Assembly: GCA_037925075.1 (NCBI GenBank)
Contig: JAXSNR010000001.1
Span: forward strand, 214,085 to 278,084
DNA from: Aquificaceae bacterium
Lineage (GTDB): Bacteria > Aquificota > Aquificia > Aquificales > Aquificaceae
DNA: 64,000 nucleotides
Direction: 5' to 3'
In this document: piece by piece, positions 42,500-63,539 of the stretch
How the letters are laid out: each line of letters starts with the position of its first letter
Position numbering within the stretch: the first letter of the stretch is position 1
Made by a program: the position numbers and the translations under genes
The notes under the pieces: generated by a model
Seen by the model: the letters and a program-made list of their open reading frames with translations, nothing else
The model's database searches: none
What the model was told of the DNA's origin: nothing

Positions 42500-43000
42500 A
42501 TGCCAGTTATCATAACCCTTTTTAGGCTTTTCCTCCTTGTTCCGACCATCTACCTTCTTCAGGAAGGGCATAAGAGCCTTGCGGGTGCTCTTGTGGTAGT
42601 TGCGGGCGTTTCCGATTGGTTGGATGGTGGTCTGGCAAGAAAAAACAATCAGGTAAGTAAGCTGGGAACACTCCTTGACCCTCTCGTGGATAAGCTTTTT
42701 GTCCTCGGCGTGCTTTCTTACTTTCTTTATAGCCAAGAGGTTGGACTTTTGCCCTTTTTGCTACTTTTGATAAGGGAGCTTTCTGTATCCTTTTTGAGAA
42801 GCCTCTCTGTGGAAAAGGGCTATATCATGCCAGCGTCTTACCTTGGAAAGGCAAAGGCTTTTTTTGAATTTATAACCCTCATAGCCCTGTGCTTTGACCA
42901 AGATTACGCTAAGGTCCTTCTGTGGCTTTCTGTATTTTTGGCGTACCTTTCCATGTACGACTACGCGGTTAGGTATTTTACCTTTGAAAAAAGAGCCTAG
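42500..43000 (+). CDS. pgsA: CDP-alcohol phosphatidyltransferase (PgsA-like)
   Basis: SDWLDGGLARK, GTLLDPLVDK, IRE, GKAKA. Confidence 0.82.
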   Translation: MPVIITLFRLFLLVPTIYLLQEGHKSLAGALVVVAGVSDWLDGGLARKNNQVSKLGTLLDPLVDKLFVLGVLSYFLYSQEVGLLPFLLLLIRELSVSFLRSLSVEKGYIMPASYLGKAKAFFEFITLIALCFDQDYAKVLLWLSVFLAYLSMYDYAVRYFTFEKRA

Positions 43001-43030
43001 GCTTTCCCTTTGGCGGTATAATATTGCACC

Positions 43031-44281
43031 ATGTTAAAGGAATACAACCCCTACCTTGAATACAAAGGCGAAGAGCTTTACTTAGAAGGCGTTTCCCTTA
43101 AGGCTCTTGCGGAGGAGTTTGGCACCCCCCTTTATGTTTATAGCGGTAGCTATATAAGGGATAGAATAAGGGCTTACAGAGAAGCCTTCCCCAACGCCTT
43201 AATATGCTATGCGGTAAAAGCCAACTTCAACCCCCACATAGTAGCTACAGTCAAAGAAGAAGGTGCGGGTGTGGACATAGTTTCTGGTGGTGAGCTTTTT
43301 GTAAGTTTAAGGGCTGGAGTGGAACCCTCAAAGATAGTCTATGCGGGCGTTGGCAAAACGGTCAGAGAGCTTGAGTACGCCATAAGCTCAGATATTCTCA
43401 TGTTTAACGTGGAATCCTTCATGGAGCTTGATGTTCTCAATGAGATGGCCCAAAGGCTTGGAAAAAAGGCTCGCATAGCCATAAGGGTAAACCCAGATGT
43501 GGACCCCAAAACCCACCCTTACATCTCCACAGGTATGAAGAAAAGCAAGTTTGGAGTGGATATAAAGACCGCAAAGAAGGAGTATGAGTACGCAAGGACT
43601 TTGAAAAACCTTCAGGTGGTGGGCATACACTGTCATATAGGCTCCCAGATATTGGACGTTTCCCCTTACATTGAAGCGTCTCAAAAGGTGGTGGAGCTTT
43701 ACCATGAGCTTACAAGGGAAGGCTTTGAGATTGAGTATCTGGACCTTGGCGGTGGGCTTGGTATAAAGTACAAACCAGACCAGTCAAACCCAGAGCCCTC
43801 TGACCTTGCGGAAGCCATATTGCCGGTGATAAAGGATGTAAAGGCTAAGCTCATTCTTGAACCCGGAAGGTCTGTGGTGGGAAACGCGGGAGTGCTTTTG
43901 ACTCAGGTTCAGTTTATAAAGGACAAGGGACACAAACACTTTGTGATAGTGGATGCGGGTATGAACGACCTTGTGAGACCTGCCATGTACGAGGCATACC
44001 ATCATATAGTACCTGTGGAAAGAAGAGAAAGACCCTACATAAAGACCGATGTGGTGGGTCCCATATGTGAAACGGGGGACTTCCTTGCCCTTGACAGAGA
44101 GCTACAAGCGGTAGAAAGGGGCGAATACTTGGCTGTGCTTTCCGCAGGAGCATACGGCTTTGCCATGTCTTCCCATTACAACGTAAGACCAAGAGCCTGT
44201 GAAATCCTTGTGGAAAAGGGAAGCTACAAGGTTATAAGAGAAAGGGAGGACTATGAATACATAATATCCTTATCCCCTTAG
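43031..44281 (+). CDS. lysA: Diaminopimelate decarboxylase
   Basis: YAVKAN, HCHIGSQ, LDLGGG, EPGR, GPICETGD, GAYG..MSSHYN. Confidence 0.97.
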   Translation: MLKEYNPYLEYKGEELYLEGVSLKALAEEFGTPLYVYSGSYIRDRIRAYREAFPNALICYAVKANFNPHIVATVKEEGAGVDIVSGGELFVSLRAGVEPSKIVYAGVGKTVRELEYAISSDILMFNVESFMELDVLNEMAQRLGKKARIAIRVNPDVDPKTHPYISTGMKKSKFGVDIKTAKKEYEYARTLKNLQVVGIHCHIGSQILDVSPYIEASQKVVELYHELTREGFEIEYLDLGGGLGIKYKPDQSNPEPSDLAEAILPVIKDVKAKLILEPGRSVVGNAGVLLTQVQFIKDKGHKHFVIVDAGMNDLVRPAMYEAYHHIVPVERRERPYIKTDVVGPICETGDFLALDRELQAVERGEYLAVLSAGAYGFAMSSHYNVRPRACEILVEKGSYKVIREREDYEYIISLSP

Positions 44282-45703
44282 CTCTCTAACCACACTGTTT
44301 ACCACATCAATTACAGCTTGTGGTGTGTAAAAGGTAAAAACTATTAGCATGAGCAACATTAAGGCTGGTATTAATAGCATAAAGGGATGTATAGCCTTTT
44401 CCCTTTCCCCCTTACCCGTTCCTGAGAGCATGGGCAGAACCTGCCAAAAAACTCCAGAAAAGGCTACTGCGAGAGAAATGAGCACTAAAATACCAAGAAA
44501 CTGATTTTTTTGAATAAGCCCAATTATTATGTAAAGTTTGCTAAAAAAGGTAGAAAAGGGTGGTAATCCAGATATACTAGCTAAGCCAAACAGCAACACA
44601 AATGAGGTTATCTTCATATCTTTAAAAAGACCATTTATCTTTTCCATCCTCCTTTCGTGCAATAGGGAAAGTATGTTTCCAGATGCCATAAAAAGAACAC
44701 CCTTGCTTATAGCATGAAAAAGTATATGCAAGATAGCACCAAAGGCACCATAACCGCCCACGCCAAAACCAAGAGCTATAAGACCCATATTTTCCATGGA
44801 TGAGTAGGCAAAAAGCCTCTTATACTCCCCCTGCCTTAGCATAATAAGGCTTGAGAGAAAGAGGGTTAGCAAACCAAAGAAGATCATAAAATTCCCCGCA
44901 TAGGCTATGCCCGCCTTTTCGTTTATCTGATAAAACCTCAAAATGCCAAGCAAAGCGGTGTTTAAAAGAACACCAGAAAGGAGAGCACTAACAGGACTTG
45001 GTGCCTGAGAATGTGCATCCGGAAGCCAGTTGTGCATAGGTGCAAAGCCCACCTTTGTGCCAAAGCCTACAAGGGCAAGGATAAAGGAAAGAAAAAGTAT
45101 ATTCCTATCAAGCTTTTGAACTGAAGCCATTATATCAACGAAGGAAAGAGCTTTAAGACTATCACCGTACACATGAGCGGTTGAGTAATAAAGTAATACA
45201 ATTGCAAATAGACCCAAGGTAATACCTATAGAACACATTATCACATACTTCCAAGAAGCTTCGTAAGACTCTTTACTTCTATAAAAGGCTATAAGCAAGG
45301 CTGTGGTTAAGGTGGTGGCTTCAAGCCCAACCCAATATATGCCAAGGTTGTTGGAAAGTATGGATACTATCATGCTAAGAATAAAGCCATTTTTCCAAAA
45401 ATAGTAATACTTGAAACGCCTTTTAGATATGCCCTGAGATATTTCTGTCCTTACATAACCAAAGGAGTAAAAAACCACAAAAAGCTCAAGCAAGGCAACA
45501 CTCAAAAGAAGAAAGGAATCAATAGGATCTACAAGGAAAAGGTCGTAAAAGTGCGTAGAATATTCTTTGCGAAAGAAGATATAAAGGCTTGATAGAAACA
45601 AACCAAAAGAAATTAGAAGTTGTAGATAGGACATGACCAGAACATCCACAAAAAGTGAGAGGATTAGGCCTAATGCTGGTAGCAATAAAGGTACGGAAAT
45701 CAT
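44270..45703 (-). CDS. hyfF: Ehr/hydrogenase-4 antiporter-like subunit (HyfF/EhrD-like)
   Basis: WVGLEATT, EASWKY, GTKVGFAPMHNWLPDAHSQAPSPVSALLSG, AYSSMEN. Confidence 0.85.
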   Translation of the reverse strand: MISVPLLLPALGLILSLFVDVLVMSYLQLLISFGLFLSSLYIFFRKEYSTHFYDLFLVDPIDSFLLLSVALLELFVVFYSFGYVRTEISQGISKRRFKYYYFWKNGFILSMIVSILSNNLGIYWVGLEATTLTTALLIAFYRSKESYEASWKYVIMCSIGITLGLFAIVLLYYSTAHVYGDSLKALSFVDIMASVQKLDRNILFLSFILALVGFGTKVGFAPMHNWLPDAHSQAPSPVSALLSGVLLNTALLGILRFYQINEKAGIAYAGNFMIFFGLLTLFLSSLIMLRQGEYKRLFAYSSMENMGLIALGFGVGGYGAFGAILHILFHAISKGVLFMASGNILSLLHERRMEKINGLFKDMKITSFVLLFGLASISGLPPFSTFFSKLYIIIGLIQKNQFLGILVLISLAVAFSGVFWQVLPMLSGTGKGEREKAIHPFMLLIPALMLLMLIVFTFYTPQAVIDVVNSVVRELRG

Positions 45704-46344
45704 TCTTTTAGCACCTCCAAAGCATCAACTCTTATGTCCTCAAAGCTCTTCATTATGCGAAGGAGCAAGACAGAAGCCATAAGTATGCTTACAAAAATGT
45801 CAAAAAGTATGCCGAGTTCTACTACCAGAGGCATTCCCGTAACAGCACTGTTTGCAGCCAAGAATATGGCATTTTCCATTATTAAAAGCCCTAATATCTG
45901 GGAAAAAAGAACCTTTCTGATAACAAGGAGCATACCACCTATAAAGAAGGTGGATAGAGATGACACAAACACAAACTTGCCAAAAATAAACTCAAGACCA
46001 CCAAACTTTGCAACCAGTATTGTAGATATAACTATAAGAATACCAGAAAACACCACAGCGGATGGAATGCTCATGATCATATCAAGTTCCCTTTCCTTGC
46101 CAGTTCTTTTAAGAACCCTGAAAAGTAAAATAGGGATCAGTATGCCTTTAAATACTATGGTAGCCAAAAAGGAAAGGTAGAGATGGAAGACCCCTGAGCT
46201 TATAGCTACCACAAGTACATACAAGGCAAGCGTCCATGATTGGAGCATGTTTAGTCTTATGGCAAACTTCAAAAAGGGAGAGGCAACGTTCAGAACTGCA
46301 AAAACCAGTACCATGAGAGCAAAAAAGCTTGCCAGTTTTTCCAT
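45700..46344 (-). CDS. hyfE: Ehr/hydrogenase-4 membrane subunit (HyfE/EhrC-like)
   Basis: FKGILIP..L, SQILGLLIMENAIF, MPLVVELGILFD; start ATG 46344 behind SD GGAGG. Confidence 0.82.
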   Translation of the reverse strand: MEKLASFFALMVLVFAVLNVASPFLKFAIRLNMLQSWTLALYVLVVAISSGVFHLYLSFLATIVFKGILIPILLFRVLKRTGKERELDMIMSIPSAVVFSGILIVISTILVAKFGGLEFIFGKFVFVSSLSTFFIGGMLLVIRKVLFSQILGLLIMENAIFLAANSAVTGMPLVVELGILFDIFVSILMASVLLLRIMKSFEDIRVDALEVLKE

Positions 46345-46345
46345 C

Positions 46346-47293
46346 TTAAGCCTCCATAGAAAGTACAAGTGCAAGCAAGGAAAGGACAAAAGCAAAGGAG
46401 AGGATGTTGGGAACTCTAAAAAGTCTCAACTTCGCATTGAAGGATTCCACAAAGGCAACAACCAGACAAAGAAATAACATCTTTATCAGATAGAGGGCAA
46501 AAGCCAAAGGATAAAGAGTAGCATCCCCTATGAAGGGAAATAGCAACATAGACATAAGGCTCAAAAACAGCGTAAGCCTTAAATAGGAGCCATATTCAAA
46601 GAGAAAAAGGTGCTTACCACTTGCCTCAAGTATGTTAGCCTCATGAACCATGGTGAGCTCTAAATGAGTTTCTGGATTGTCAAAGGGTATGCGTGCGTTT
46701 TCCGCAAGGGCAAGCACCAGAAGGGCAAACAATATAAGGAAGGGTATGCTTATTGAAAAGTGGTCTGATCCCTCAGAAAGGAGAGAGCGAAGTTCATCAC
46801 TTAGCTTTAAAAAAACACCCTTTAGATTAGGCTCTCCAGTGTATACACAAAGAGAGAAGAAAAGCAACACCGCACTTGGTTCTGACAAACTGCTTATAAA
46901 CCACTCCCTGCTTGAACCAAGACCTCCAAAGGAGCTTGCCTGATCAAGGGCATATAGGGTCATGAAAAAAACAGGTAGGGAAAGAAGGTATAGGATAACC
47001 ACAGGGTTTGAAGAATTTCCCAACGGAGGATTTTTGTAGAAAAAGGGAAGCATAAAGCACAAAATGGCATGAGGTAAAAAGTAAAAATAGGGGGCAATGC
47101 TTGAGACTATGCTTGCCTCCTTTGAAAGCACCACTTCTTTTTTGATAAGCTTGTAGAGATTCCTATAGAATTGAAAAAGACTTATACCCTTTTGACCTCT
47201 TATCCTTTGCTTTACTTTGTGGATAAGACCTGCAAAAAAGGGAGCAAGCATTATAACAACAAGAGCCTGTATAATACCCAAAAGCAAACTCAT
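46346..47293 (-). CDS. hyfC: Ehr/hydrogenase-4 NuoH-like subunit (HyfC/HycD)
   Basis: LAPFFAGLIHKVK.R..GQKG, GGLGSSRE, AENARIPFDNPETHLELTMVHEA, AKLRLFRVP; start ATG 47293. Confidence 0.87.
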   Translation of the reverse strand: MSLLLGIIQALVVIMLAPFFAGLIHKVKQRIRGQKGISLFQFYRNLYKLIKKEVVLSKEASIVSSIAPYFYFLPHAILCFMLPFFYKNPPLGNSSNPVVILYLLSLPVFFMTLYALDQASSFGGLGSSREWFISSLSEPSAVLLFFSLCVYTGEPNLKGVFLKLSDELRSLLSEGSDHFSISIPFLILFALLVLALAENARIPFDNPETHLELTMVHEANILEASGKHLFLFEYGSYLRLTLFLSLMSMLLFPFIGDATLYPLAFALYLIKMLFLCLVVAFVESFNAKLRLFRVPNILSFAFVLSLLALVLSMEA

Positions 47294-49146
47294 GGTTTTT
47301 CTCCTGTAAGTATTGCGTAGACAATAAAACAAAGAAGTAATGTGAGGAATATGTAGCTTATATAAAGGTTTATGTTTCCTGTTTGAAGGAATCTTCTAAC
47401 ATGGTCTGAGATATCCAGTATGTATGCGGTTAGCTTTCTGTATATCTTTTCTTCAAATACATCTTTTATCTCTTCCTTGTACAGAATACTACTTCGGAAG
47501 TACTTTTTTATTTCCGCATCAAAGTTTATCTCAGACACTGTGGAATAAAACATGGAAAAGAGCCTCCTTATACTGTAGGTTTGTGAGAGGGTGGTAGCCT
47601 GTGCGGATGGATTTTCTTCGTCAAGCCCGCAAACCCAGGTTTCATACATCCGAACCTTGCTTCTTCTTGTTATAAAAGCCAAGATAAGCAAAAGGACAAG
47701 GGATAGAAGCAAAATGTTAATTGGTACATAGTTCAACTCCGCGATTTCAAGTGGATAAACGCTGGAAAGCAAGCTAAACACCGGGTAGGGGTATAAGCCA
47801 AGCAAAAGAGAAGAGAGAACTGGTACACCTATACCAACCAACTCCGTTAGACTTGGCTTACTGGAAACCTTTGCTCCCCTGGGCTTTCCCAAGAAAGCAA
47901 CCCCAATAAACTTTACAAAGGTGGCACCTACAAAAACACCAGAGAGGGCAAGAAGAGTAAGCATAAGCACAAACATGTAAGCTGTAGAATCTCCTTTAAT
48001 GTTTAGAGAAAGGAGGAGGGTTTTGTAAAGAAGGAGTTCGCTGAAGAACATGTTGGAGGGAGGAAGAGCGGACATAAACAAAGAGGACGTTAGCATAAGG
48101 TAAAAGAGCATTGGGCTTGACTTTGAAAGTCCACCAAGCCTATTCATATCGTATTCGTGGGTCATTTTAACCACAACTCCTGCACCCATAAAAAGTGAAC
48201 TTTTCAGAAGAGAATGGTTTAAGGTATGAAGTAGTAAAAAGGCTTTAGCGGTAGAGTATATGGGTAATACTCCCTTGTGGAGACCAAAGTTAGCTAAACC
48301 CATTCCCATGACCAACAAGCCCATGTTTTCTATGCTGGAGTAGGCAAGAAACTTTTTAACACTTGATTCGGTAAGTGAGTAAATGGCACCATACACAAGA
48401 GAAAGACAACCAAAAAGGATGAGCAGTAAGCTTATAAGGGGTGAATTTGAAGAGGAAAATTCAAAGAGAAACCTCATCATGCCATAGATAGCGGTGTTTA
48501 GCATTACTCCAGACATTAGGGCTGAAACATTGGAAGGCGCCACAGGATGAGCGTAGGGTAGCCATACATGGAAAGGGACTACTCCAGCCTTTATGGAAAA
48601 GCCTAAGAGTGCCAACAAAAGAATATATGAGTCCGCAGAACCACGAAAGCTGTCAAAGCTTACAGAAGAAGTTTTTAGGTATAAAAGGATAAAGGAGAGC
48701 ATTATAAGGGCTGTCCCTAAATGGGTCATTAAAAAGTATATAAAGCCAGCTCTTGAGCTTTCCTTTTTCTCGTCACTTATAACAAGGTAAAAAGAGGACA
48801 GAGACATAATCTCCCAGAAGAAAAGAAAACTGACTAAATCGTTACTTATAAGGGTAAAAAACATAGAAAGTATGAAAAGCCCTGTAAGGCTTAAAAGGAC
48901 AGGAGGCTTTCCTTTTAGTTCCTTAGCATATCCGAGTGTGTATACTGAAACATAAAGGGATACAAAAACCAAAAGGGAAGAAAAGAAGGTGGATAGGGCG
49001 TCAAGCTTAAAGTGTGCCCCAAAAAATCCAAGTTGAAGTACAAACTCCCTTGGCAGGAGGAAAAGGGATAAAACTATGAGAGAAGAGACGGTAAAGGGTA
49101 TATACTTGTATACATTTAGGATTCTACTACTTGAGCCTTCAGACAT
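47290..49146 (-). CDS. hyfB: Ehr/hydrogenase-4 antiporter-like subunit (HyfB/EhrA-like)
   Basis: FFWEIMSLSS, KAGVVPFHVWLPYAHPVAPSNVSALMSG, KKFLAYSSIEN, TWVCG. Confidence 0.87.
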   Translation of the reverse strand: MSEGSSSRILNVYKYIPFTVSSLIVLSLFLLPREFVLQLGFFGAHFKLDALSTFFSSLLVFVSLYVSVYTLGYAKELKGKPPVLLSLTGLFILSMFFTLISNDLVSFLFFWEIMSLSSFYLVISDEKKESSRAGFIYFLMTHLGTALIMLSFILLYLKTSSVSFDSFRGSADSYILLLALLGFSIKAGVVPFHVWLPYAHPVAPSNVSALMSGVMLNTAIYGMMRFLFEFSSSNSPLISLLLILFGCLSLVYGAIYSLTESSVKKFLAYSSIENMGLLVMGMGLANFGLHKGVLPIYSTAKAFLLLHTLNHSLLKSSLFMGAGVVVKMTHEYDMNRLGGLSKSSPMLFYLMLTSSLFMSALPPSNMFFSELLLYKTLLLSLNIKGDSTAYMFVLMLTLLALSGVFVGATFVKFIGVAFLGKPRGAKVSSKPSLTELVGIGVPVLSSLLLGLYPYPVFSLLSSVYPLEIAELNYVPINILLLSLVLLLILAFITRRSKVRMYETWVCGLDEENPSAQATTLSQTYSIRRLFSMFYSTVSEINFDAEIKKYFRSSILYKEEIKDVFEEKIYRKLTAYILDISDHVRRFLQTGNINLYISYIFLTLLLCFIVYAILTGEKP

Positions 49147-49190
49147 GCTAAACTATTATTATATAACAAATTGGTGTTATAATTCTAACC
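49147..49190. promoter_or_regulatory. Bidirectional promoter between Ehr membrane and soluble subunit genes
   Basis: 44-bp AT-rich gap; plus strand TGtTATAAT-7nt-GTG; minus strand TATAAT-11nt-ATG. Confidence 0.6.
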
Positions 49191-50681
49191 GTGTTCCTGA
49201 AGGAAGAAAATGTAGAAGCCCATCAGCTTTACAGTAAGGTCAGGGAGGTTATCAGTAAGGGATTCTACCTTTTCAGTATGGTAGGAGGTGATGAAAGGGA
49301 GTTGGGAGGTGGGTTTGCTATCAGGTACTTTTTCATGAAACAGGGAGATTTAAAGGTTTTCACCTTAAGGACAGAGGATGTGTTTCCCTCTGTGGTTCCG
49401 ATCTGTCCGTCTTCTAAGAACTACGAGAGAGAAATACGAGACATGTTTGGGATTTTCCCAGAGGGTCATCCTGATAGTAGAAAGCTCATGCTGTATCCAG
49501 AAAACTGGGACCCAGCAATACATCCCCTCAGAAAAGACTACAAGGGACAAAAGCCAGAGTTTAAGAAGTATGGCAATTATAACTACAAAAAGGTTATAGG
49601 GGATGGGGTTAACGAAATACTTGTTGGTCCTATACATGCGGGTATCATAGAACCGGGCCATTTTAGGTTTTCCCTTGCTGGCGAAGCCATACTTCAGTTG
49701 GAGATAAGGCACTTTTGGAAGCATAGAGGAATAGAAAAACTATGTGAAGGGAAGGATCCCGAAGAAGTACTAAGGATTGTAAACAGAATTTCTGGGGATA
49801 ATGCGGTTAATTTATCCATAGCTTATCTTAACGCAGTTGAGCCTCTTCTTGGCGTTGAACTATCGGAAAGGGCTAAAACCATAAGGTCTATACTTGGAGA
49901 GGTTGAGAGGCTTTGGAACCATGTTAGAGATATAGGTTGGTTGTTCATGGATATAGGTTTTCCATTGGTCGCTCAACATCTTTTTTCATTACAGGAAAGG
50001 CTTATGAGGTTCAACAAGGCAATAGCAGGGCACAGGTTTATGTTTGATGTATGCGAACTTGGTGGAGTGAAAACTGATTTTGATAAGAACAGGGAAAGAG
50101 AGCTGTTTGACTTGCTTGAATTGATTGAGAGAGAAATAAAACATACAGAAGACTTTGCCATAGAAACGCCCTCTGTAAGGGATAGATTTGAAACCACGGG
50201 TCGTGTGTTTAAAAAGACTGCGTTGGAGCTTTCTCTTTGTGGCGTGTGTGCCAGAGCTTCTGGTCTGGAAAGAGATACTCGGTTAGAACTTCCTTATTTG
50301 GCTTACCAAGATGTACATCCTCAAGTACACGAAGAAGGGGACGTTATGGCAAGGTTTTTAGTAAGGGTAGGGGAAATCTACGAATCTATAAGGTTGATAA
50401 AGCTTTTCCTCAAAAACATGCCAGAACACACAAAAAATACGCATAAAATTCAGAAGCCTGAGCCTTATTCTTGGAACATGGGAAATGCGGAAACACCAAG
50501 AGGTAATGCCTTTTTCTTTGTGATGTTTGACAAACATGGAAAGGTATACAGGTTGAAGTATGTGGACCCATCCTTTAGAAACTGGCCAGCCATACAGTAT
50601 GCGGTCTTGGGAGATATAATAGCGGACTTTCCCCTTGTTAACAAAAGCATGAACCTTTCCTATGCAGGGAATGACCTTTAA
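49191..50681 (+). CDS. NuoC/D-like large subunit of Ehr complex (HycE/HyfG homolog lacking Ni-binding Cys)
   Basis: YEREI.DMFG...GHP..R...HPLRKD, VGPIHAGIIEPGHFRF, HRGIEK; L1 site RISGDN and C-terminus KSMNLSYAGNDL have no CxxC. Confidence 0.88.
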   Translation: MFLKEENVEAHQLYSKVREVISKGFYLFSMVGGDERELGGGFAIRYFFMKQGDLKVFTLRTEDVFPSVVPICPSSKNYEREIRDMFGIFPEGHPDSRKLMLYPENWDPAIHPLRKDYKGQKPEFKKYGNYNYKKVIGDGVNEILVGPIHAGIIEPGHFRFSLAGEAILQLEIRHFWKHRGIEKLCEGKDPEEVLRIVNRISGDNAVNLSIAYLNAVEPLLGVELSERAKTIRSILGEVERLWNHVRDIGWLFMDIGFPLVAQHLFSLQERLMRFNKAIAGHRFMFDVCELGGVKTDFDKNRERELFDLLELIEREIKHTEDFAIETPSVRDRFETTGRVFKKTALELSLCGVCARASGLERDTRLELPYLAYQDVHPQVHEEGDVMARFLVRVGEIYESIRLIKLFLKNMPEHTKNTHKIQKPEPYSWNMGNAETPRGNAFFFVMFDKHGKVYRLKYVDPSFRNWPAIQYAVLGDIIADFPLVNKSMNLSYAGNDL

Positions 50682-50695
50682 AGGAGGAATATAGA

Positions 50696-51196
50696 ATGCT
50701 TTTTCTCTTAAGGAGGTCCTTTCGTCTAAAAACCGAAGAAATAAAAACAGAACACCAAGAACTACTGGAAGAACTTCGTAAGGTAATAGATAACACCCTT
50801 GGCGGTAGTTTGTTTGTTAGAGAAGTGGATACAGGTTCTTGTAATGCCTGTGAGGTAGAAATTGCTAACCTTAACAACCCTTATTATGATGTAGAAAGGT
50901 TTGGCATAAAATTTGTTGCCTCACCAAAGCATGCGGATGTGCTTTTAATAACTGGTTGCGTGACCAGAAACATGCTTGTGCCTATGATGAAGGCGTACCA
51001 CAATGCACCAAAACCCAAATTTGTTATAACTGTGGGAGATTGTGCAAAAGATTGTAGCTACTTCAAAAATTCATATGCGGTAGAAGGTCCAGTGGAGAGA
51101 CATATACCCGTAGACCTTCACATACCCGGATGCCCACCAGAACCAAGTCAGATAATAGAAGGGTTTTTAAAACTGCTTAATAAAAGGGGAAGATGA
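50696..51196 (+). CDS. NuoB-like Fe-S small subunit of Ehr complex (HycG/HyfI homolog)
   Basis: GSCNACEVE, SPKHAD, VGDCA, IPGCPP: four cluster ligands present. Confidence 0.9.
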   Translation: MLFLLRRSFRLKTEEIKTEHQELLEELRKVIDNTLGGSLFVREVDTGSCNACEVEIANLNNPYYDVERFGIKFVASPKHADVLLITGCVTRNMLVPMMKAYHNAPKPKFVITVGDCAKDCSYFKNSYAVEGPVERHIPVDLHIPGCPPEPSQIIEGFLKLLNKRGR

Positions 51197-52276
51197 GGAT
51201 TCTTGCCCAAAATATCTCCCATTTAGAGTTATATAGTTTAGTATCTTACTCAGATTTCTTATACCTTTCAGATCTTGAATTGAGGTTAGCCTTTTTTCTC
51301 TCCTTCTTCTTATTATCTCCTTTGCGGTCTCCTTGCCTATGCCGGGAACTCTTATAAGCATACTGTAGCTTGCCGTGTTTATCTCCACTGGGAATAGGTG
51401 CCTATTTACCTCCGCCCATGCGGTTTTTGGATCTCTGTTGAGGGGAAGGTTGCCATCTAATAGTACGGGCTTTAGGTCCTCAAAGGAAAAGCCATACTCC
51501 CTTATGAGAAAATCAATCTGATATAGCCTGTACTCTCTCAGTGGGTTTTCCGCAGGTCTGTTTTCAAGGGGTGTACCCTTTACGGGGAAAAAGGCACTAA
51601 AGTATACCCTGCTCAATCTAAAACGTCTATTTAGGTAATCCACCACCCTTATTATTTCTTCATCCTTTTCATCTCCAACACCCACCATCATCTGGCTTAT
51701 CTGACTTTTGCCCTTCTGCTCTCTTATAAGCCTGTCCACGTACTCTATCTTGGGAAGCATATCCTGAAGTATGCTCTTGCCCTTTGCTATACCCTTTAGC
51801 CTTTCTTCTTTTGAAGTCTCAAGGTTTATGGAGACCCTGTTTGCCAACTTTACAGCCTCTTCAACGCTTTGCAAGGATGCACCGGGCATAAGCTTGAGGT
51901 GTATGTAACCTTTAAATTCGTACTTTTCTCTGAGGATTTTTGCCGTATCTATCATCCTCTCCATGGTAAAGTCTGGGTTTCCAAAGATGCCCGAAGATAG
52001 GAAAAGCCCCTTTACCTTTCCAGCCTTGTAAAGCTCCATAAACCCTCTTGCCACCTCCTCCGGCTTTAGTGCTATTCTTACGGTTTCATCCCTATCCCTC
52101 CTAAAGGCACAGTATACGCAGTTTTTATCACACATGGTGGTCTGCATAAGCTTAAGAATTGGCACTTTCCCCTTAGGCGTTGAAGCATGAAAAATACAAC
52201 TTTCAAAGTTATAATCTCCATCCCTCTCAAAGCTGGCAAGCCTTGACATAAGCCTTATCTTCTGATGGAGGTCCAT
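51167..52276 (-). CDS. Radical SAM + helix-hairpin-helix protein (putative DNA modification/repair family)
   Basis: CDKNCVYC, GLFLSSG, YIHLK..PG, RVYFSAF.P, REYRLYQ.DFLIR.YGF, LIRVPGIG (HhH). Confidence 0.85.
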   Translation of the reverse strand: MDLHQKIRLMSRLASFERDGDYNFESCIFHASTPKGKVPILKLMQTTMCDKNCVYCAFRRDRDETVRIALKPEEVARGFMELYKAGKVKGLFLSSGIFGNPDFTMERMIDTAKILREKYEFKGYIHLKLMPGASLQSVEEAVKLANRVSINLETSKEERLKGIAKGKSILQDMLPKIEYVDRLIREQKGKSQISQMMVGVGDEKDEEIIRVVDYLNRRFRLSRVYFSAFFPVKGTPLENRPAENPLREYRLYQIDFLIREYGFSFEDLKPVLLDGNLPLNRDPKTAWAEVNRHLFPVEINTASYSMLIRVPGIGKETAKEIIRRRREKRLTSIQDLKGIRNLSKILNYITLNGRYFGQESSSSPFIKQF

Positions 52277-52338
52277 AATCTATAGAATATGCACAGAACG
52301 GCTTTATGCCACCCCTTAGATGTTAAAATCTTAGTCCC

Positions 52339-53856
52339 ATGAGGGCACTTATATCCGTCTACTACAAGGAAGGTCTTGAAGAGCTTTTGCAAGCCCTTTA
52401 CGAAAAGGGTTATGAAATCATATCCACCGGTGGCACCGCAAGGTTTATTGAAAGACTGGGCTACAAGGTAAAACATGTGGAGGAGCTTACAGGCTTTCCT
52501 GAAATCCTGGGTGGTAGGGTAAAAACACTGCATCCTGCGGTGCATGGTGGCATACTTTACAGAGACTGGGTGGAAAAGGACAGACAAGATATAGAAAGTC
52601 TTGGCATAAAGCCCATAGACCTTGTAGTGGTAAATCTATATCCCTTTGAGGAAAAGTTAAAGGATGACCTTACAGAACAGGAGCTTATGGAGTTTATAGA
52701 CATAGGAGGACCCACACTCATAAGGGCTTCCGCCAAAAACTTCTACAGGGTTGGGGTGGTGGTGGACCCTGCGGACTACCGATGGGTGGCGGAAAAGATA
52801 AAAGAAGGTGGCCTGAGCCTTGAGGAAAGAAAGCACCTTGCGGTAAAAGCCTTTTCCCTTACCTCCTACTACGACGCTATCATATCAAAAGCACTTTCAA
52901 GCATCCTTGATGTAGATACCTCTCCAGAGTACTCCGCTTTACCCTTGAGATTGGCAAAGTCCCTAAGATACGGAGAAAACCCTCACCAAAAGGGATGGCT
53001 ATATCTCAATCCCTTTGAAGAGCTCGGAATCGCAAACTCTAAGGTCTTGCAAGGGAAGGAGATGTCCTTTAACAATTACCTTGATGGTGATTCAGCCCTT
53101 AGGTTAGTAAGCGAGTTTTCAAAGCCTGCCTGCGTGATAGTAAAGCACAACAACCCATGCGGTGTCGCATTGGGTAGGAGCCTACTTGAAGCTTATGATA
53201 GGGCTTTTTCTTCAGACCCAGAGTCTTCCTTTGGGGGCATAGTCGCCTTTAACGACAGGGTGGATAAGGACTTAGCCCAAAGGCTCACTGAGGTATTCCT
53301 TGAGGTGGTTATAGCTCCGGAGTTTTCTGAGGAGGCTCTGGAGGTGCTTTCAAAGAAGAAGAATCTTAGGCTTATTCAAGCACTTGGCTTTTCCAAGTCT
53401 TTTGATATAAAAAAGATAAGCGGAGGCTATCTTTTGCAAGAGGAGGACAGCTACGACTACGAAAGGCTTGAGGTAGTCTCAAAAAGACAGCCCACAGAAA
53501 GGGAGATGAAGGATATGCTTTTTGCTTGGAAGGTTTGCAAGTTTGTAAAATCCAACGCCATGGTAATAGCAAAGGAAGGCAGGACCTTAGGCATAGGCTC
53601 AGGAAACACCTCAAGGGTGGACAGCCTCAGATGCGCCATCGCAAAGGCTCAGAGGTTTGGCTTTGACCTAAAGGGAAGCGTCCTTGCGTCCGAAGCCTTT
53701 TTACCCTTTAGAGACAGCGTGGATATAGCCCATTCGGCGGGCATCACAGCCATCATCCAACCCGGTGGCTCCATAAGGGACTCTGAAGTGATAGAGGCGA
53801 TAAACCACTACAACATGGCTATGATATTTACAGGCACAAGGCACTTTAGGCACTAA
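52339..53856 (+). CDS. purH: Bifunctional AICAR transformylase/IMP cyclohydrolase
   Basis: [47 protein letters not shown]. Confidence 0.97.
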
Positions 53857-53866
53857 ATTTAAAGCC

Positions 53867-54163
53867 ATGCAGGTAAAGGAAGGCTTCTACACTTATGGCT
53901 CACATGGAGGATACGAGGCAAGCCTTGAAACACCCCCAGACCTTGTAATAGAGATACTCTCTCCCTCTAACACTTACACGGAGGTGGAACAAAAGGTGCA
54001 AGAGCTTTTGGATTTTGGAGTGGAAAGGGTCCTACTTTTGGACCCAAGGCTTAAAAGGGCATTTCTTCACAAAAAGGGCATTGTAGAAGTTTATTCCTTT
54101 GAGGAAGAGTTTGAGCTTCTACCAGAATTGAAAATTAAACTCTCTGAGGTGTTGGAGGAATGA
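53867..54163 (+). CDS. Uma2 (DUF820) endonuclease-like protein, N-terminally truncated
   Basis: PPDLVIEILSPSN...K...FGV..V.L.DP; only 98 aa against about 180 aa for the family. Confidence 0.65.
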   Translation: MQVKEGFYTYGSHGGYEASLETPPDLVIEILSPSNTYTEVEQKVQELLDFGVERVLLLDPRLKRAFLHKKGIVEVYSFEEEFELLPELKIKLSEVLEE

Positions 54164-54393: not shown

Positions 54394-55324
54394 GAGGGCT
54401 TTAATCCTTAGGCTTTCTTCTCTTGGTGATGTGGTGCTAACTTCCTGTCTTTTGGACCCTCTTATTGAGCTTGGCTATAGCCCTTACCTTTTGACCTTTG
54501 AACCCTATGGTGAAATCTTCTTAGAAGACCCACGCCTTAAAGTTTTTCAGATAAAAAAGGAGGAGCTTTTTAGGAAACAAACCCTTGAAAGGTTAAAAGG
54601 CTTTGACCTTTACCTTGATATGCACAAGAACCTAAGGACGCTTTTACTGAGGTTAAAGCTTGGTGGAAGGTGGAAGAGCTACAACAAACAGTCCATCAGA
54701 CGCAGGCTTTCCATATACTTCAAAAGCCTTAGAAAACCCTACAGTGTGGTAAGGGCATACCTTGAAAGCATAGGCTACAAGGAGGGAAGACCCAAGATAT
54801 TGCTTTCTGAAGAGAGGCTAAAGCTTTGGAAACAAAGGCTTGGAAGTTATGTATGCATAGCACCGGGAGCAAGGTACGAAAAGAAGAGATATCCTTACTT
54901 TGACAAACTCACAGAACTTTTTCTCAAAGAGGAATATCAAGTGGTTCTTGTGGGAGACAAAAGGGACAGGGAGCTTACAAGAAACTGGCAAGGTATTAAT
55001 CTGTGTGGGGAGCTTTCCCTTTTGGATGTGGGTGCGGTCATAAAAGGTGCTTTGATCTTTTTGGGAAACGACTCTGGCTTACTTCACATATCAAGGGCTG
55101 TAGGCACAAAGGCCATTCAAATTTACGGCGGAACGCATCCCACCCTTGGCTTTGCCCTTGAACCTGATGAAGGCCTTTATGTGCTTAAAAACCTCTACTG
55201 CCAGCCCTGTAGCCTGCATGGAAAAGGCAAGTGCAGGCTTGGAGACTATCCATATCCTTGCCTTGATATAGCTCCGGAAGAGATATTTAAATTGGCTCTT
55301 GGCCTTTTAAGGGAAAGAAGCTAA
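54386..55324 (+). CDS. Glycosyltransferase family 9 (LPS heptosyltransferase-like)
   Basis: RLSSLGDVVLT, IAPGA...KR, GNDSGLLH...A.GT, CQPC. Confidence 0.88.
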   Translation: MDKRALILRLSSLGDVVLTSCLLDPLIELGYSPYLLTFEPYGEIFLEDPRLKVFQIKKEELFRKQTLERLKGFDLYLDMHKNLRTLLLRLKLGGRWKSYNKQSIRRRLSIYFKSLRKPYSVVRAYLESIGYKEGRPKILLSEERLKLWKQRLGSYVCIAPGARYEKKRYPYFDKLTELFLKEEYQVVLVGDKRDRELTRNWQGINLCGELSLLDVGAVIKGALIFLGNDSGLLHISRAVGTKAIQIYGGTHPTLGFALEPDEGLYVLKNLYCQPCSLHGKGKCRLGDYPYPCLDIAPEEIFKLALGLLRERS

Positions 55325-55377
55325 AAGGTTAAGGCTAAAAGGGAGTTTATGGTATATTTACATGTTGGAGGGCTAAA

Positions 55378-58300
55378 GTGTCCTCTTTGGATTTGACCTT
55401 TATAACAAACGAACCGGGGCAAACACTTAGGGATAGGTTTAACCAACTAATAAAGGACTGTAGGTTTTTTGACTGTATTGTCGGTTATTTTAATGTAAGC
55501 GGATTCCATGCCATTTACAAATCCTTGGAGAAGGCTGAGAGAATAAGAATCCTAATAGGAATTGGAACCACTCCAAGCACTTACCACCTAATAAAAACCG
55601 CAGAAACACACCCTTCTCATTATGAGGCAAAACAGAAGGTTGAAGAGATGATAGAAAATGAAATGGCTGAAAGCGAAGACGATCAAAATGTTGAAGAAGC
55701 AATCAGAAAGTTTATTGAGTGGATAAAAAACGGAAAACTACAGATAAGAGCATATCCATCCCAAAAACTTCATGCAAAGTTGTACATTATAACCTTTAGA
55801 GAAGGTGATCGTGATAAGGGAAGAGTAATAACAGGCTCAAGCAATTTTACTCAGTCTGGGCTTATAGACAATCTTGAATTTAATGTTGAACTAAAAAATA
55901 CATCGGACTATGAATACGCAAAGAATAAATTTGAGGCGTTGTGGAAAGAATCCGTTGAAGTCTCCGAAGCCATTGTCCAGATCTTAACACAAAAGACTTG
56001 GCTAAAGGATGATATCACACCTTACGAGCTTTATCTTAAATTCTTGTATGAATATTTCAAGGACGAGCTAAATATAACAGATGAAGTCTTTACGGAGTAT
56101 ATTCCGGAAAATTTCAAAGAGCTTGAATACCAAAAACAGGCGGTTTTGAACGCCAAAAGAATCCTTGAAGAGTACGGTGGAGTTTTTATCTCCGATGTGG
56201 TAGGACTTGGTAAAACCTACATGGGTGCAATGCTTGCAAACCAACTTGATGGTAGAACGCTTGTTATAGCACCACCCGCACTTATTGATAAAAGAAACCC
56301 CGGCTCATGGAGAAATGTATTTTCTGATTTTAACATTCCTGCGGAGTTTGTATCAATCGGCAAGCTTGACGAAGCTAAAGAGGATTCAAAGAAATATAAA
56401 AACATCATCATAGATGAATCACATCGTTTTAGAACAGAGACCACCATTAGCTACGAGGATTTATCTGAAATCTGTCGTGGTAAAAGAGTTATACTCGTAT
56501 CCGCAACTCCCTACAACAATTCACCAATGGATATTCTTGCCCAAATTAAACTTTTCCAGAACGCCAAAAAAAGCACCATACCCGGAATTGTAAATCTTGA
56601 AGATTTTTTTAAAAAACTTGATAAGCGATTAAAGGATATTGACCGCCAGAAGGATTATGAGGAATACCTAAGAATAACAAGGGAGAACGCAAAGGAGATA
56701 AGGGAAAAGGTTTTAAAGCATATAATGATTAGAAGAACAAGAAGCGAAATTCAAAAGTATTTTGCAAAAGACTTGGAGAAAAACAATATTAGATTTCCAG
56801 AAGTAGAAGACCCAAAGCCTATTTATTATCAGTTAAACTCCCATGAAGATAAGGTTTTTATGGAAACTGTAAGGCTAATAACACAAGAACTAAAATATGC
56901 CCGTTATATGCCACTACTGTATTTAAAGAAACCCATAAAACCTTTGGAAGAACAAGCCCAGAAAAATATGGGCGGTTTTATGAAGGTGCTTCTTGTAAAG
57001 CGACTTGAAAGTAGCTTTTATGCATTTAGAAATACCATTGACAGGTTTATTGGTTATTATGAGAAGTTTCTTAGTGAATACGAAAAAGGAAACGTATATA
57101 TAAGCAAAAAGTACATAAATAAAATATTTGAACTCTTGGAAGAAGGGGATGACGAAAAAATTCAAGAGCTTATAGATGAAGGAAAAGCGGAAAGATACAA
57201 CAGCGAAGACTTTAAACCTTATTTTGAAAAAGACCTAAAAAAGGACCTTGAAACTTTAAGAAAAATAAAATCCATGTGGGACTCTATAGAAAGAGACCCA
57301 AAGGTTGAAACTTTACTGGAAAGTTTAGAAAACCACCCCGTTTTAAAGGATAAAAAAATCATCATCTTTACAGAATCCAAGGAAACTGCGGAATATTTAA
57401 CTGAGAAAATAAACGAAAGATACGGACATGAGATAGCCTTGTTATTTCATAGTGGCTCTCCAGAAGGAGTTCGTGAGAAAATTATAGAAAACTTTGACGC
57501 AAGGGCAAGAAATAAAAAGGATGATTATAGAATCCTTATAACAACCGATATACTTTCCGAAGGCGTTAACCTTCATAGGTCAAACATTGTTATAAACTAT
57601 GATATACCATGGAATCCAACAAAATTAATGCAAAGAGTAGGGAGAATTAACCGTATAGATACAAAATTTGATAAGATATACGTGTTTAACTTTTTCCCAA
57701 CAGAACAGGCGGACTCTGAAATTGAACTTACAAAAATTGCTCGCTCAAAAATAGAAGCCTTTTTGACATTGCTCGGTGGTGATTCTTCAATCTTGATGGA
57801 AGGAGAACCAGTAGATTCTCATGAACTATTTGACAAACTACTCTCAAAGAAAACCATAACAGAAGACGAAGAAGAAGAAAGTGAGCTAAAGTATTTGAAG
57901 ATTATCAAAGATATACGCGATAACAATCCTGAGCTTTTTGAAAAAATAAAAAGGCTTCCTAAAAAGGCACGTTCCGCAAAGGCATTTGATGAATCATTAA
58001 ATGAAGTTGCACAGCCAAACTCCTTAATTACCTTTTTCAGACAAGGTAAATTGATGAAATTTTTCCTATCAACAAAGGATAAAACGTTTGAACTTGATTT
58101 TCTGACAACTGCAAAAATTCTGGAAAGCTCCATAAATGAAAAAAGAGAAAAAATTCCTGTTGAAGATTACTACCATCTACTTGATAAAAATAAATCCGCT
58201 TTCTATGAAACTACCACCGAAGAAGGAATTATTGAAAGTACAAAAAGAGGTGGTTCTGATAGTAGGCAAAAATTGTTGAAAATTCTACTTGCAGTTCAAA

Positions 58301-58575
58301 ATAACAGCAAGCAATTAACAGAAGAGCAAGAAGAATACCTAAAGAATGTTATAGATAGGCTTGATGTACTTCCAAAAAAGACCATTCAAGGAGTTCTAAA
58401 AGAGTTGGAAAAACTCGGAAAAGAGATACAGAATCCACTAAAAGTAATAACAGTCTTGCAAAGTAAAATATCACAAGCATTTCTTAGAGAGCATTATGCG
58501 GAGAATTCTACCAAAAAGGAAGAAAAAAGAGAAGTTATTTTATCACTTTATTTGGTAGATAAGGAAAATGAATAA
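55378..58575 (+). CDS. PLD-nuclease domain + SNF2/SF2 helicase
   Basis: LHAKLYI...GSSNFT (PLD-like), SDVVGLGKT, IIDESH, SATP, ILSEGVNL, QRVGRINR; GTG start behind SD GGAGG. Confidence 0.88.
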   Translation: MSSLDLTFITNEPGQTLRDRFNQLIKDCRFFDCIVGYFNVSGFHAIYKSLEKAERIRILIGIGTTPSTYHLIKTAETHPSHYEAKQKVEEMIENEMAESEDDQNVEEAIRKFIEWIKNGKLQIRAYPSQKLHAKLYIITFREGDRDKGRVITGSSNFTQSGLIDNLEFNVELKNTSDYEYAKNKFEALWKESVEVSEAIVQILTQKTWLKDDITPYELYLKFLYEYFKDELNITDEVFTEYIPENFKELEYQKQAVLNAKRILEEYGGVFISDVVGLGKTYMGAMLANQLDGRTLVIAPPALIDKRNPGSWRNVFSDFNIPAEFVSIGKLDEAKEDSKKYKNIIIDESHRFRTETTISYEDLSEICRGKRVILVSATPYNNSPMDILAQIKLFQNAKKSTIPGIVNLEDFFKKLDKRLKDIDRQKDYEEYLRITRENAKEIREKVLKHIMIRRTRSEIQKYFAKDLEKNNIRFPEVEDPKPIYYQLNSHEDKVFMETVRLITQELKYARYMPLLYLKKPIKPLEEQAQKNMGGFMKVLLVKRLESSFYAFRNTIDRFIGYYEKFLSEYEKGNVYISKKYINKIFELLEEGDDEKIQELIDEGKAERYNSEDFKPYFEKDLKKDLETLRKIKSMWDSIERDPKVETLLESLENHPVLKDKKIIIFTESKETAEYLTEKINERYGHEIALLFHSGSPEGVREKIIENFDARARNKKDDYRILITTDILSEGVNLHRSNIVINYDIPWNPTKLMQRVGRINRIDTKFDKIYVFNFFPTEQADSEIELTKIARSKIEAFLTLLGGDSSILMEGEPVDSHELFDKLLSKKTITEDEEEESELKYLKIIKDIRDNNPELFEKIKRLPKKARSAKAFDESLNEVAQPNSLITFFRQGKLMKFFLSTKDKTFELDFLTTAKILESSINEKREKIPVEDYYHLLDKNKSAFYETTTEEGIIESTKRGGSDSRQKLLKILLAVQNNSKQLTEEQEEYLKNVIDRLDVLPKKTIQGVLKELEKLGKEIQNPLKVITVLQSKISQAFLREHYAENSTKKEEKREVILSLYLVDKENE

Positions 58576-58596
58576 ATTTTGAAGGAGGTGGTAGGC

Positions 58597-61968: not shown

Positions 61969-62144
61969 TCATTCCCACACCTGAACAATTAAAGCAATTT
62001 GAAGCTATATTTGACAGGGCATACACAATCCAAAAGCAAAAATTTGAAGGTAAGATAAGTGAAGAAGAAGCAGAAGAAAAACTTGCCGAAGTCCAAAAAG
62101 AATTGGATGAAATGGTGGAAGGAATGTATATGGAGGGAAATTAA
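61872..62144 (+). pseudogene. Out-of-frame C-terminal tail of the methyltransferase (end of the specificity domain)
   Basis: FINSTSGFQINDARQLPIIIP...LDEMVEGMY lies in the -1 frame and continues the LLNSY motif. One extra base near 61895-61912 would give a single 1182-aa ORF. Confidence 0.8.
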
Positions 62145-62164
62145 TATGAAAAAAGTAAAAATTT

Positions 62165-62668
62165 ATGTTTAGCAAACTCATTCAAATAATTTTAGTTGCT
62201 ACATCGCTTTCACCAGTTTTGCTTACCTTCTGGTTTAAACTATTTAGTAAGTCTTGTGATTTAAAAGAAGGTATATTTTATTTAATATCAGCAATTATTT
62301 TGATGGTCATTTTAAAACTCATTATTGACCTTGCAAAGAAAAAATTAGAAGTAATTCCTATATCCATAAAAGAAATATCTAACGCAGATAATGAAAGTGT
62401 TATTTTTATTTTTACCTACCTTATACCATTGTTAGGAATAGATTTTAATATGATGTTGTTCTTATTAGTATTATTTTTTATTATAGTATTCACTACGAAT
62501 ATATACCATTTTAATCCATTATTAGGCTTATTAGGGTATCATCAATATGAAGTAAAATTAGAAGATGGTCCTACTTTTATTTTGATTACCAGAAAGACAC
62601 TTATAAACAGCAAACAAATAAAAAGTGTAGTTCAATTAACTAATTATATATTATTAGAAAAGGAGTGA
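62165..62668 (+). CDS. kwaA: Kiwa anti-phage membrane protein KwaA-like
   Basis: About 4 TMs, TSLSPV, IFTYLIPL, HFNPLLGLLGY..YEV...LITRK; directly upstream of a KwaB-like gene. Confidence 0.7.
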   Translation: MFSKLIQIILVATSLSPVLLTFWFKLFSKSCDLKEGIFYLISAIILMVILKLIIDLAKKKLEVIPISIKEISNADNESVIFIFTYLIPLLGIDFNMMLFLLVLFFIIVFTTNIYHFNPLLGLLGYHQYEVKLEDGPTFILITRKTLINSKQIKSVVQLTNYILLEKE

Positions 62669-62671
62669 CGT

Positions 62672-63517: not shown

Positions 63518-63539
63518 AGATTAAAAATAAAACCCGTAG

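Follow-up and report, generated by a model that had tools for sequence, protein, structure and literature searches.

A predicted six-gene energy-converting hydrogenase-related (Ehr) complex with an altered nickel site in an Aquificaceae genome

Energy-converting hydrogenase-related (Ehr, or Ech-related) complexes stand evolutionarily between the hydrogenases and complex I, and they are carried by about half of the Nitrospirales genomes, by many thermophiles and acidophiles and by the tuberculosis bacillus. Here we describe a putative member of this class, a six-subunit 'mini complex I' encoded in a stretch of 64,000 nucleotides from the genome of an Aquificaceae bacterium of hot springs (contig JAXSNR010000001.1 of assembly GCA_037925075.1), hereafter the window. 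Unless another contig or locus is named, coordinates are positions of the window, in which the module occupies 44270-51196.

The six-gene class as such is already known. A set named ehrABCDLS has been described in Methylacidiphilum (PMC6688271), and GSU0739-0745 of Geobacter sulfurreducens correspond to EhrA to EhrD, EhrL and EhrS, proteins that are most abundant on formate (PMC7894505). An association with formate dehydrogenase (FDH-Ehr) has been proposed for Margulisbacteria and Saganbacteria (PMC6349859), and in Nitrospira H2 does not induce the Ehr genes (PMC12342949). In Azorhizobium caulinodans, hyqBCEFGI has been credited with 'endo-hydrogenase' activity in vivo (PMC2650096, PMC2930871, PMC3357923), and Hyq and Ehr have been listed together among the group-4 subtypes in which the canonical Ni-Fe ligands are missing (PMC4758237). 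The function of Ehr is described as unknown in several papers, whose definition of the class matches the features of the window's locus (PMC6349859, PMC10284858, PMC12342949, PMC4378227). An earlier sequence-only reading of this DNA had also given the substrates as unknown; this is the majority view in the literature, but it has to be qualified by the disputed claim of an H2:quinone activity for Hyq (PMC2650096, PMC3357923). What is new here is the inverted gene order, a 6.9-kb polymorphism within one genus, an affinity to lineages other than Aquificota and a signature of the nickel site.

The six genes and the vacant nickel site

Judging from its predicted proteins, the complex belongs almost certainly to the Ehr class: a large subunit of the group-4 type lacking the CxxC motifs, a small subunit with a NuoB-type cluster, and NuoH-like, HyfE-like and antiporter-like membrane subunits were all found. 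The large and the small subunit alone make up the peripheral arm. Gene identities were taken from Pfam, NCBIfam and sequence searches against solved structures, three sources that agree for all six proteins. The NCBIfam 'equivalog' scores for Hyf were all well under their cut-offs, so the six proteins are relatives of the hydrogenase-4 subunits rather than orthologues.

The central observation concerns the large subunit, EhrL (49191..50681, plus strand, 496 aa), a fusion of NuoC and NuoD/HycE-like parts (PF00329, PF00346 and the N-terminus of PF00374). We aligned it with HMMER to HycE of Escherichia coli (PDB 7z0s_E, E 2.6e-73, residues 23-493). The RVCGICGFAH stretch of HycE corresponds to RISGDNAVNL in EhrL, with Ser201 and Asn204 in the places of the two cysteines, and DPCYSC(TDR) corresponds to NLSYAGNDL, with Ser490 and Gly493. 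All four cysteines of the NiFe center, the set that characterizes group-4 hydrogenases, are replaced. In the DNA, RISGDN lies at 49785..49802 in place of the N-terminal RxCGxC nickel motif and NLSYAGNDL-COOH at 50652..50678 in place of DPCxxCxxR, both on the plus strand. The absence of both nickel-binding CxxC motifs had been claimed before, and it turned out to be a property of the whole family. The same replacements are found in ~66 homologues from Aquificota, Nitrospirota, Campylobacterota, Chloroflexota, Ca. Acidulodesulfobacterales, Methanocellales and Woesearchaeota, as the signatures [RK][IV]SGD[NHT] and, at the C terminus, NKSxNLSY[AS]GND[LM], and they are therefore not a sequencing error.

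The residues that took the place of the ligands are themselves strongly conserved. Over 68 homologues, 82 positions of the large subunit are at least 95% conserved, and N484, K485, S486, L489, S490, Y491, G493 and D495 of the C-terminal motif belong to them. No cysteine of the large subunit is conserved across these 68 homologues; a new thiolate metal site was ruled out on this ground, the CGVC at 350-353 being specific to the clade. With the four nickel-ligand cysteines gone and no conserved cysteine in EhrL, a canonical [NiFe] center is impossible. The protein ends three residues past the position of the last cysteine, at the residue aligned with the C terminus of mature HycE. HycE is made with a C-terminal extension that is removed by a maturation endopeptidase; as predicted from its gene, EhrL is without such a tail for the protease to act on.

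The small subunit, EhrS (50696..51196, plus strand, 166 aa), is NuoB/HycG-like (PF01058 1.8e-29; NF005012 2.2e-37, above the cut-off), and its matches in the PDB include HycG (7z0s_G, 5.3e-36) and MbhJ (6cfw_J, 2.6e-35). Its residues C49, C52, C116 and C146 fall on the cluster ligands of both structures, giving one [4Fe-4S] site, and the four are retained in all 14 small subunits that were aligned, so that the cluster is intact as had been proposed. No ferredoxin-type CxxCxxCxxxC motif occurs in the six frames of 43001-52500. Together with the annotation of the flanking genes as lysA-like and radical-SAM, this means that no NuoI-like ferredoxin, input module or maturase is encoded at the locus, again in line with the sequence-only reading.

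Exactly six long open reading frames (ORFs), all intact, are present in 44270-51196, arranged as had been claimed, with HyfB-, HyfC-, HyfE- and HyfF-like genes on the minus strand (hereafter B, C, E and F) and the large and small subunits (L and S) on the plus strand. The membrane operon begins with the HyfB/HycC/EhrA-like antiporter-like subunit (47290..49146, minus, 618 aa; PF00361, NF005086 2.5e-135, PDB 7z0s_C 1.3e-46). It is followed by the NuoH/HycD/EhrB-like subunit (46346..47293, minus, 315 aa; PF00146 5.7e-28, PDB 7z0s_D, i.e. HycD, 4.6e-22) and by the small HyfE/EhrC-like subunit (45700..46344, minus, 214 aa; NF008556 9.1e-14, NuoK-like PF00420 3.7e-05). The last gene encodes the HyfF/EhrD-like antiporter-like subunit (44270..45703, minus, 477 aa; PF00361 1.1e-56; its best NCBIfam match, hydrogenase-4 subunit F at 1.9e-104, does not reach the equivalog cut-off). 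Two starts were revised: the longest ORF of the NuoH-like gene runs to TTG 47332, but the alignment to the structure starts at M14 and ATG 47293 is likelier, and that of the HyfE-like gene runs to TTG 46395, but ATG 46344 is likelier, with GGAGG 7 nt before it. The NuoH-like orthologue of a congener (G008) also has 315 aa, and the HyfE-like orthologue of another genome of the family (G036) also has 214 aa.

The genes are tightly packed, with ATGA overlaps at B/C and E/F and a gap of 1 nt between C and E. Shine-Dalgarno sequences of the GGAGG type precede C (AGGAG), E (GGAGG), F (GGAGGTG) and S (AGGAGG, 8 nt upstream). Both boundaries of the module are formed by genes outside the complex that were identified with Pfam, a lysA-like pyridoxal phosphate-dependent decarboxylase on the left (43031..44281, plus) and a radical-SAM/HHH protein on the right (51167..52276, minus). 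Their 3' ends overlap those of the module, by 12 bp between lysA and the HyfF-like gene and by 30 bp between the radical-SAM gene and EhrS.

Gene order, transcription signals and origin of the module

Gene order was compared in 12 Aquificota loci and in ~60 loci from named genomes and metagenome-assembled genomes (MAGs). Almost always the six genes are co-directional, in the order B-C-E-F-L-S. The divergent layout appears only in the genus of the window (G008 and two Aquificaceae MAGs) and in G036, while G014, the earliest branch of the window's clade, is co-directional. This restricted occurrence indicates that the B-C-E-F block was simply inverted, and its retention at two different genomic sites indicates that the inversion is compatible with function. 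The 'two divergent operons' noted previously do exist here, but they represent a local inversion and not a trait of the family. In the MAG of Thermocrinis sp. RSWP3 (L080), E-F-L-S lie on one strand and are followed by inverted C and B, so the operon has been broken more than once in Aquificaceae. In three Campylobacterota MAGs (L074, L076 and L088) two Ehr-like modules stand in tandem, the first of them with a short large subunit of 457 aa that carries RISGNES and KSCDLSYAGSDL and has a very long branch.

The divergent region between the two operons measures 44 bp (49147..49190). On the plus strand, TGtTATAAT (49175-49183) lies 7 nt before the GTG at 49191, and on the minus strand the hexamer TATAAT (reverse complement of 49158-49163) is followed after 11 nt by the ATG at 49146. 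No Shine-Dalgarno sequence was found at either of the first genes, those of the HyfB-like subunit and EhrL. The arrangement of the gap and the positions of the start codons are conserved in three relatives. From these features we infer overlapping back-to-back promoters, and the two units would probably be transcribed from their -10 elements as leaderless or nearly leaderless mRNAs. The 'shared 44-bp promoter' of the sequence-only reading stands as far as the gap and the -10-like hexamers on both strands are concerned, but a scan of the intergenic region with the sigma-70 consensus gave one weak match that was not above those of shuffled sequences. An Rfam search of 43000-52500 (E up to 1) had no match, and no fluoride riboswitch was detected either there or in seven related loci. 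The only Rfam matches in related loci were a CRISPR repeat (L022) and a cobalamin riboswitch (RF00174, 47.8 bits, L053:6725-6951), the latter located in a hot-spring MAG downstream of the Ehr operon and before a gene of 501 aa.

Among the 19 genomes of the genus that were scanned, three have close orthologues: the window's own, G008 and G113. Orthologues also occur in G036 (71% identity) and G014 (65%), and the distribution within the phylum is patchy. In seven congeners without Ehr, the lysA-like and radical-SAM genes are convergent neighbors whose ends overlap, and in the carriers the 6.9-kb module is located exactly between them. The module is thus a clean 6.9-kb presence/absence polymorphism, an accessory insertion or deletion within the genus. 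No direct repeats or target-site duplication are visible at its borders.

The impression, gained by eye, that this DNA is AT-richer was borne out by its GC content of 40.2% against a genome mean of 44.6%, which places it in the lowest 4.7% of 7-kb windows. The GC at third codon positions is 0.32-0.42 per module gene against 0.45-0.52 in the flanks, i.e., among the lowest 3-13% of long ORFs. We built a maximum-likelihood tree from 70 large subunits, by a quick search and with SH-aLRT as its only measure of support. In it, the clade of the window has, at 100% support, a sister clade of hot-spring MAGs; a 'Deltaproteobacteria' bin is one of these, and Ca. Acidulodesulfobacterium was assigned to the sister clade by synteny. 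In this tree the Hydrogenothermaceae, together with G023 and G030, fall in another clade with Campylobacterota, and a third Ehr type, present in G012 and G016, groups with Nitrospirota. These positions divide the Ehr of Aquificota into three or more separate lineages, in keeping with the horizontal transfer of a self-contained module. A phylogeny of the large subunit had been suggested earlier, as had, to check for such transfer, a comparison of GC and synteny. The outcome of both, with EhrL grouping outside the other Aquificota, low GC, a patchy distribution and an empty site in seven congeners, fits a horizontal acquisition, of which these would be clear signs.

Compared with G008, the ratio of nonsynonymous to synonymous substitution rates (dN/dS) is 0.06-0.11 at a dS of ~0.8-1.3 (0.077 for EhrL), in the range of the flanking housekeeping genes. 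The module is therefore under purifying selection and not decaying. A second, Nitrospirota-like type of Ehr in G012 (L026, G012:C1:147000-166900), with 40% identity to the window's large subunit, has S, L, F and a 5'-truncated E, and its B and C genes are absent from that locus; the orthologous locus of G016 (L027) is complete, so the G012 copy is probably decaying. Further along the window, the GC drops to 27-36% at 55000-64000 (genome 44.5%), far below that of the Ehr module. An ORF of the Uma2 family at 53867-54163 has 98 aa and is probably truncated, since congeners (L020, L095 and L102) have one or two tandem copies of 176 aa.

Possible function of the complex

Most of the charged residues expected along an ion path are kept in the membrane arm. 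Over 57-72 homologues, the Glu of transmembrane helix (TM) 5 and the Lys of TM7 and TM11 are invariant, and TM12 always has Lys or Glu. The HyfB-like subunit has E112, K186, K315 and E370, none of which varies over 57 homologues; the HyfF-like subunit retains E128, K217, K334 and K389, and the NuoH/HycD-like subunit retains the acidic loop of the NuoH type, RIPFDNPETHLELTMVHEANILEASG. From this ion path, kept apart from TM8, we infer that the complex may be an ion-translocating oxidoreductase.

As a whole, the explanation that we favor, with a probability of roughly 0.55, is an Ehr complex that would translocate ions and be fed by a dissociable low-potential donor. Redox-coupled ion translocation as the mechanism might equally well turn out right or wrong. 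A dissociable carrier would dock at the place occupied by NuoI or HycF in related complexes and charge the single cluster; a ferredoxin is one candidate, and another, for the sister clade, is the neighboring module of formate dehydrogenase (FDH), NuoEF and 2x[4Fe-4S] proteins. Electrons would then go to a small acceptor, seated in the polar and strictly conserved pocket that replaces the nickel site. The reaction would be coupled, possibly reversibly, to H+ or Na+ movement along the acidic loop of the NuoH-like subunit and the chains of Glu and Lys residues in the two antiporter-like subunits.

A partner gene was sought by clustering the neighbors of ~74 loci, and no conserved neighbor beyond the six genes emerged across them. 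In the sister clade, the operon is accompanied by a molybdopterin oxidoreductase of 680 aa (FDH-like), a CdhD-like protein, a 2x[4Fe-4S] ferredoxin of 97 aa, a NuoE-NuoF fusion and a NuoG/FdsA-type formate dehydrogenase subunit of 994 aa. Genes like FdhA or FdsA lie beside the operon in nine sister-clade loci, in several of them along with NuoEF-like genes, and the whole FDH/NuoEF set is confined to this one clade among the ~74 loci. An orphan NuoI-like partner elsewhere in the window's genome was also considered and rejected. Only two NuoI-like genes exist, on contig C2, 10 kb apart and far from the Ehr locus, and we read them as probably belonging to two nuo gene sets. NuoE/F are found at C2:268770-270510 and a NuoG-like gene at C1:7323-9221.

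Several observations weigh against the ion-translocating oxidoreductase proposed here. No donor, acceptor or partner gene is encoded at the window locus. A tblastn search of the window's genome gave no orthologue of FdsA, the NuoEF fusion, the CdhD-like protein or the 97-aa ferredoxin, the best FdsA match having no more than 25% identity. A single formate dehydrogenase was found there, of the FdnG type, with a twin-arginine translocation (Tat) signal and selenocysteine; it would face the periplasm. The central Lys of TM8 is replaced by Asn in both antiporter-like subunits (N217 in the HyfB-like and N248 in the HyfF-like one), and this may make the ion path weaker at one step; in the HyfB-like subunit the change is common to the window's clade and the sister clade. 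In an alignment to E. coli NuoCD (RIEYLGG), Gly202 of EhrL holds the position of the NuoD tyrosine that, as Tyr87 of Thermus thermophilus, is the ligand of the quinone head group. As the beta1-beta2 loop is moreover of the hydrogenase type (EPGHFR), a quinone site like that of complex I is not evident. The presence of this module type in only three of the 19 scanned genomes of the genus, the window's included, makes it dispensable. Lastly, we found no biochemical work on any Ehr in the literature, and to our knowledge there is none, nor a known substrate for any Ehr.

Lineages rich in Ehr, such as Aquificota, Nitrospirota, chemolithoautotrophic Campylobacterota and Methanocellales, rely on ferredoxin or on the reverse tricarboxylic acid (rTCA) cycle. 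In the Aquificaceae that carry it, the complex could conceivably use the proton motive force to drive electrons uphill onto the rTCA ferredoxins (-440 to -485 mV), or oxidize ferredoxin and pump ions in the reverse reaction, a role that we regard as doubtful. The source of reduced ferredoxin in aerobic hydrogen-oxidizing Aquificaceae is unresolved (PMC10052474), but the absence of the module from most congeners argues against a general role of this kind.

The lack of both an electron input and an electron output module at the locus also suits a redox-independent ion transporter, a Mrp-type antiporter for pH or Na+ homeostasis in which the hydrogenase-like arm would be a structural or regulatory cap and the cluster would be structural or sensing. 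Mrp antiporter subunits are among the best PDB matches of both large membrane subunits, and ehrABCDLS has been named among the possible pH-homeostasis systems of Methylacidiphilum (PMC6688271). However, the four cluster cysteines are conserved in every aligned small subunit, the pocket residues that replace the nickel site are among the most conserved, which is hard to square with a mere cap, and the sister-clade operon sits among redox genes. A pure transporter appears to us rather unlikely.

It is improbable, too, that the complex works like Hyq, as an 'endo-hydrogenase' or cytoplasm-facing H2:quinone oxidoreductase despite having no canonical nickel ligands. The parallel is real: Hyq has the same six genes, in relatives in the same order B-C-E-F-G(L)-I(S) (PMC2650096), and has been grouped with Ehr as lacking the canonical ligands (PMC4758237). 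Genetic and physiological data on H2 recycling and production have been attributed to it (PMC2650096, PMC2930871, PMC3357923), and the host lineage of the window oxidizes hydrogen. Nevertheless, EhrL lacks the four nickel cysteines, any other conserved cysteine, a C-terminal processing tail and the NuoD quinone tyrosine, H2 does not induce the Ehr of Nitrospira (PMC12342949), and three true [NiFe] hydrogenases are already encoded in the window's genome. Hyq also belongs to a nif regulon. In G036, the module is 2 kb from a nif cluster, but no HyqR-like sigma-54 regulator is present at the window locus, and nifH (TIGR01287) was not found in the window's genome or in G008 and was found in some relatives without Ehr. 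A link to nitrogen fixation was rejected for this reason, nif genes lying beside Ehr only in G036. There (L104, G036:C1:1033000-1047000; also L021), ~2 kb separate the end of the cluster from the 3' end of the membrane operon of Ehr. The cluster encodes NifH, a NifA-like sigma-54 activator, a NifX-like protein and nitrogenase component 1, of whose genes the first is apparently split into 313 and 298 aa by ~1.3 kb with two ORFs (L104:3344-6445).

That Ehr serves in this organism as the membrane anchor of a cytoplasmic formate dehydrogenase seems to us, by a hair, still less probable. The idea draws on the nine sister-clade loci with FdhA/FdsA-like genes and the several with NuoEF-like ones, on the FDH-Ehr proposal (PMC6349859) and on the peak of the Geobacter Ehr proteins on formate (PMC7894505). 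The association is limited, however, to one clade of the ~74 loci, none of its genes had an orthologue in the tblastn search, and the sole formate dehydrogenase would be periplasmic. The alpha subunit of this enzyme (G000:C1:673242-676361) has a twin-arginine signal and an in-frame TGA (...ARI*HAPTV...), typical of selenocysteine. Finally, a decaying relic of a transferred hydrogenase operon is highly improbable, in spite of the patchy presence in the genus, the low GC and the second-type copy of G012 without B and C, because the six frames are intact, dN/dS equals that of the flanking housekeeping genes, the translational coupling signals are retained and bacteria and archaea alike conserve the replacement motifs.

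The window's copy of Ehr offers practical handles. An orthologue with 71% identity and the same divergent layout is available in G036, a member of the family with a genome of 1,743,135 bp, and congeners with and without Ehr, a clean 6.9-kb indel apart, make a natural comparison. The conserved polar signature of the nickel site and the FDH, NuoEF and ferredoxin neighbors of the sister clade provide targets for mutagenesis and pull-downs.

Likeness to known systems

With complex I and with the membrane-bound complexes MBH and MBS of Pyrococcus furiosus, the window complex has in common a core made of NuoB, NuoD and NuoH types and of antiporter-like subunits, including the Glu of TM5, the Lys of TM7 and the Lys or Glu of TM12. 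NuoI and NuoEFG of complex I are absent from the window locus, although nuo-type genes are present elsewhere in the genome. MBS and MBH have 13-14 subunits, a NuoI-like one among them, as opposed to six genes here; MBS has in addition a Mrp module and a large subunit that keeps part of the cysteines, and the match of EhrL to MbsL (6u8y_L, 1.6e-23) is far weaker than that to HycE.

The best solved relatives of five of the six subunits are in E. coli Hyc (PDB 7Z0S). The fused NuoC-NuoD large subunit and the EPGHFR loop are shared with Hyc and Hyf. Unlike them, the window complex has no nickel ligands, HycF/HyfH, HycB/HyfA, FdhF or tail for the maturation protease. The NuoI-like 2x[4Fe-4S] subunit of true group-4 hydrogenases (HycF, HyfH, EchF) is likewise absent from the operon.

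Hyq, set beside the window complex by its published description, has B, C, E, F, G and I subunits, no equivalents of HyfA, HyfD or HyfH, and a small subunit with NuoB-type CxxC...C...C cluster ligands (PMC3357923), all as here. Its order B-C-E-F-G-I is kept in ~60 relatives, with B-C-E-F inverted in the window. It differs in that it comes with the sigma-54 activator hyqR and a nif regulon, while the window locus lacks a regulator gene and a search of the genome did not find nifH.

The Ehr of Geobacter, Methylacidiphilum, Nitrospira and other Nitrospirales, and Sulfobacillus have the same subunits as the window complex and no NuoI-like one. Those of Nitrospirota fall in the same tree and share the C-terminal NLSYAGNDL with EhrL of the window. 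Within the class, the locus is set apart by its orientation, the four membrane genes being inverted relative to L-S, whereas the other Ehr, those of Nitrospirota included, are co-directional. It is also set apart by the Asn in TM8 of the HyfB-like subunit, a change from the Lys of other Ehr that extends to the sister clade, and by the N-terminal signature, which is SGDN in the window's clade, SGDT in Nitrospirota and SGDH in Hydrogenothermaceae.

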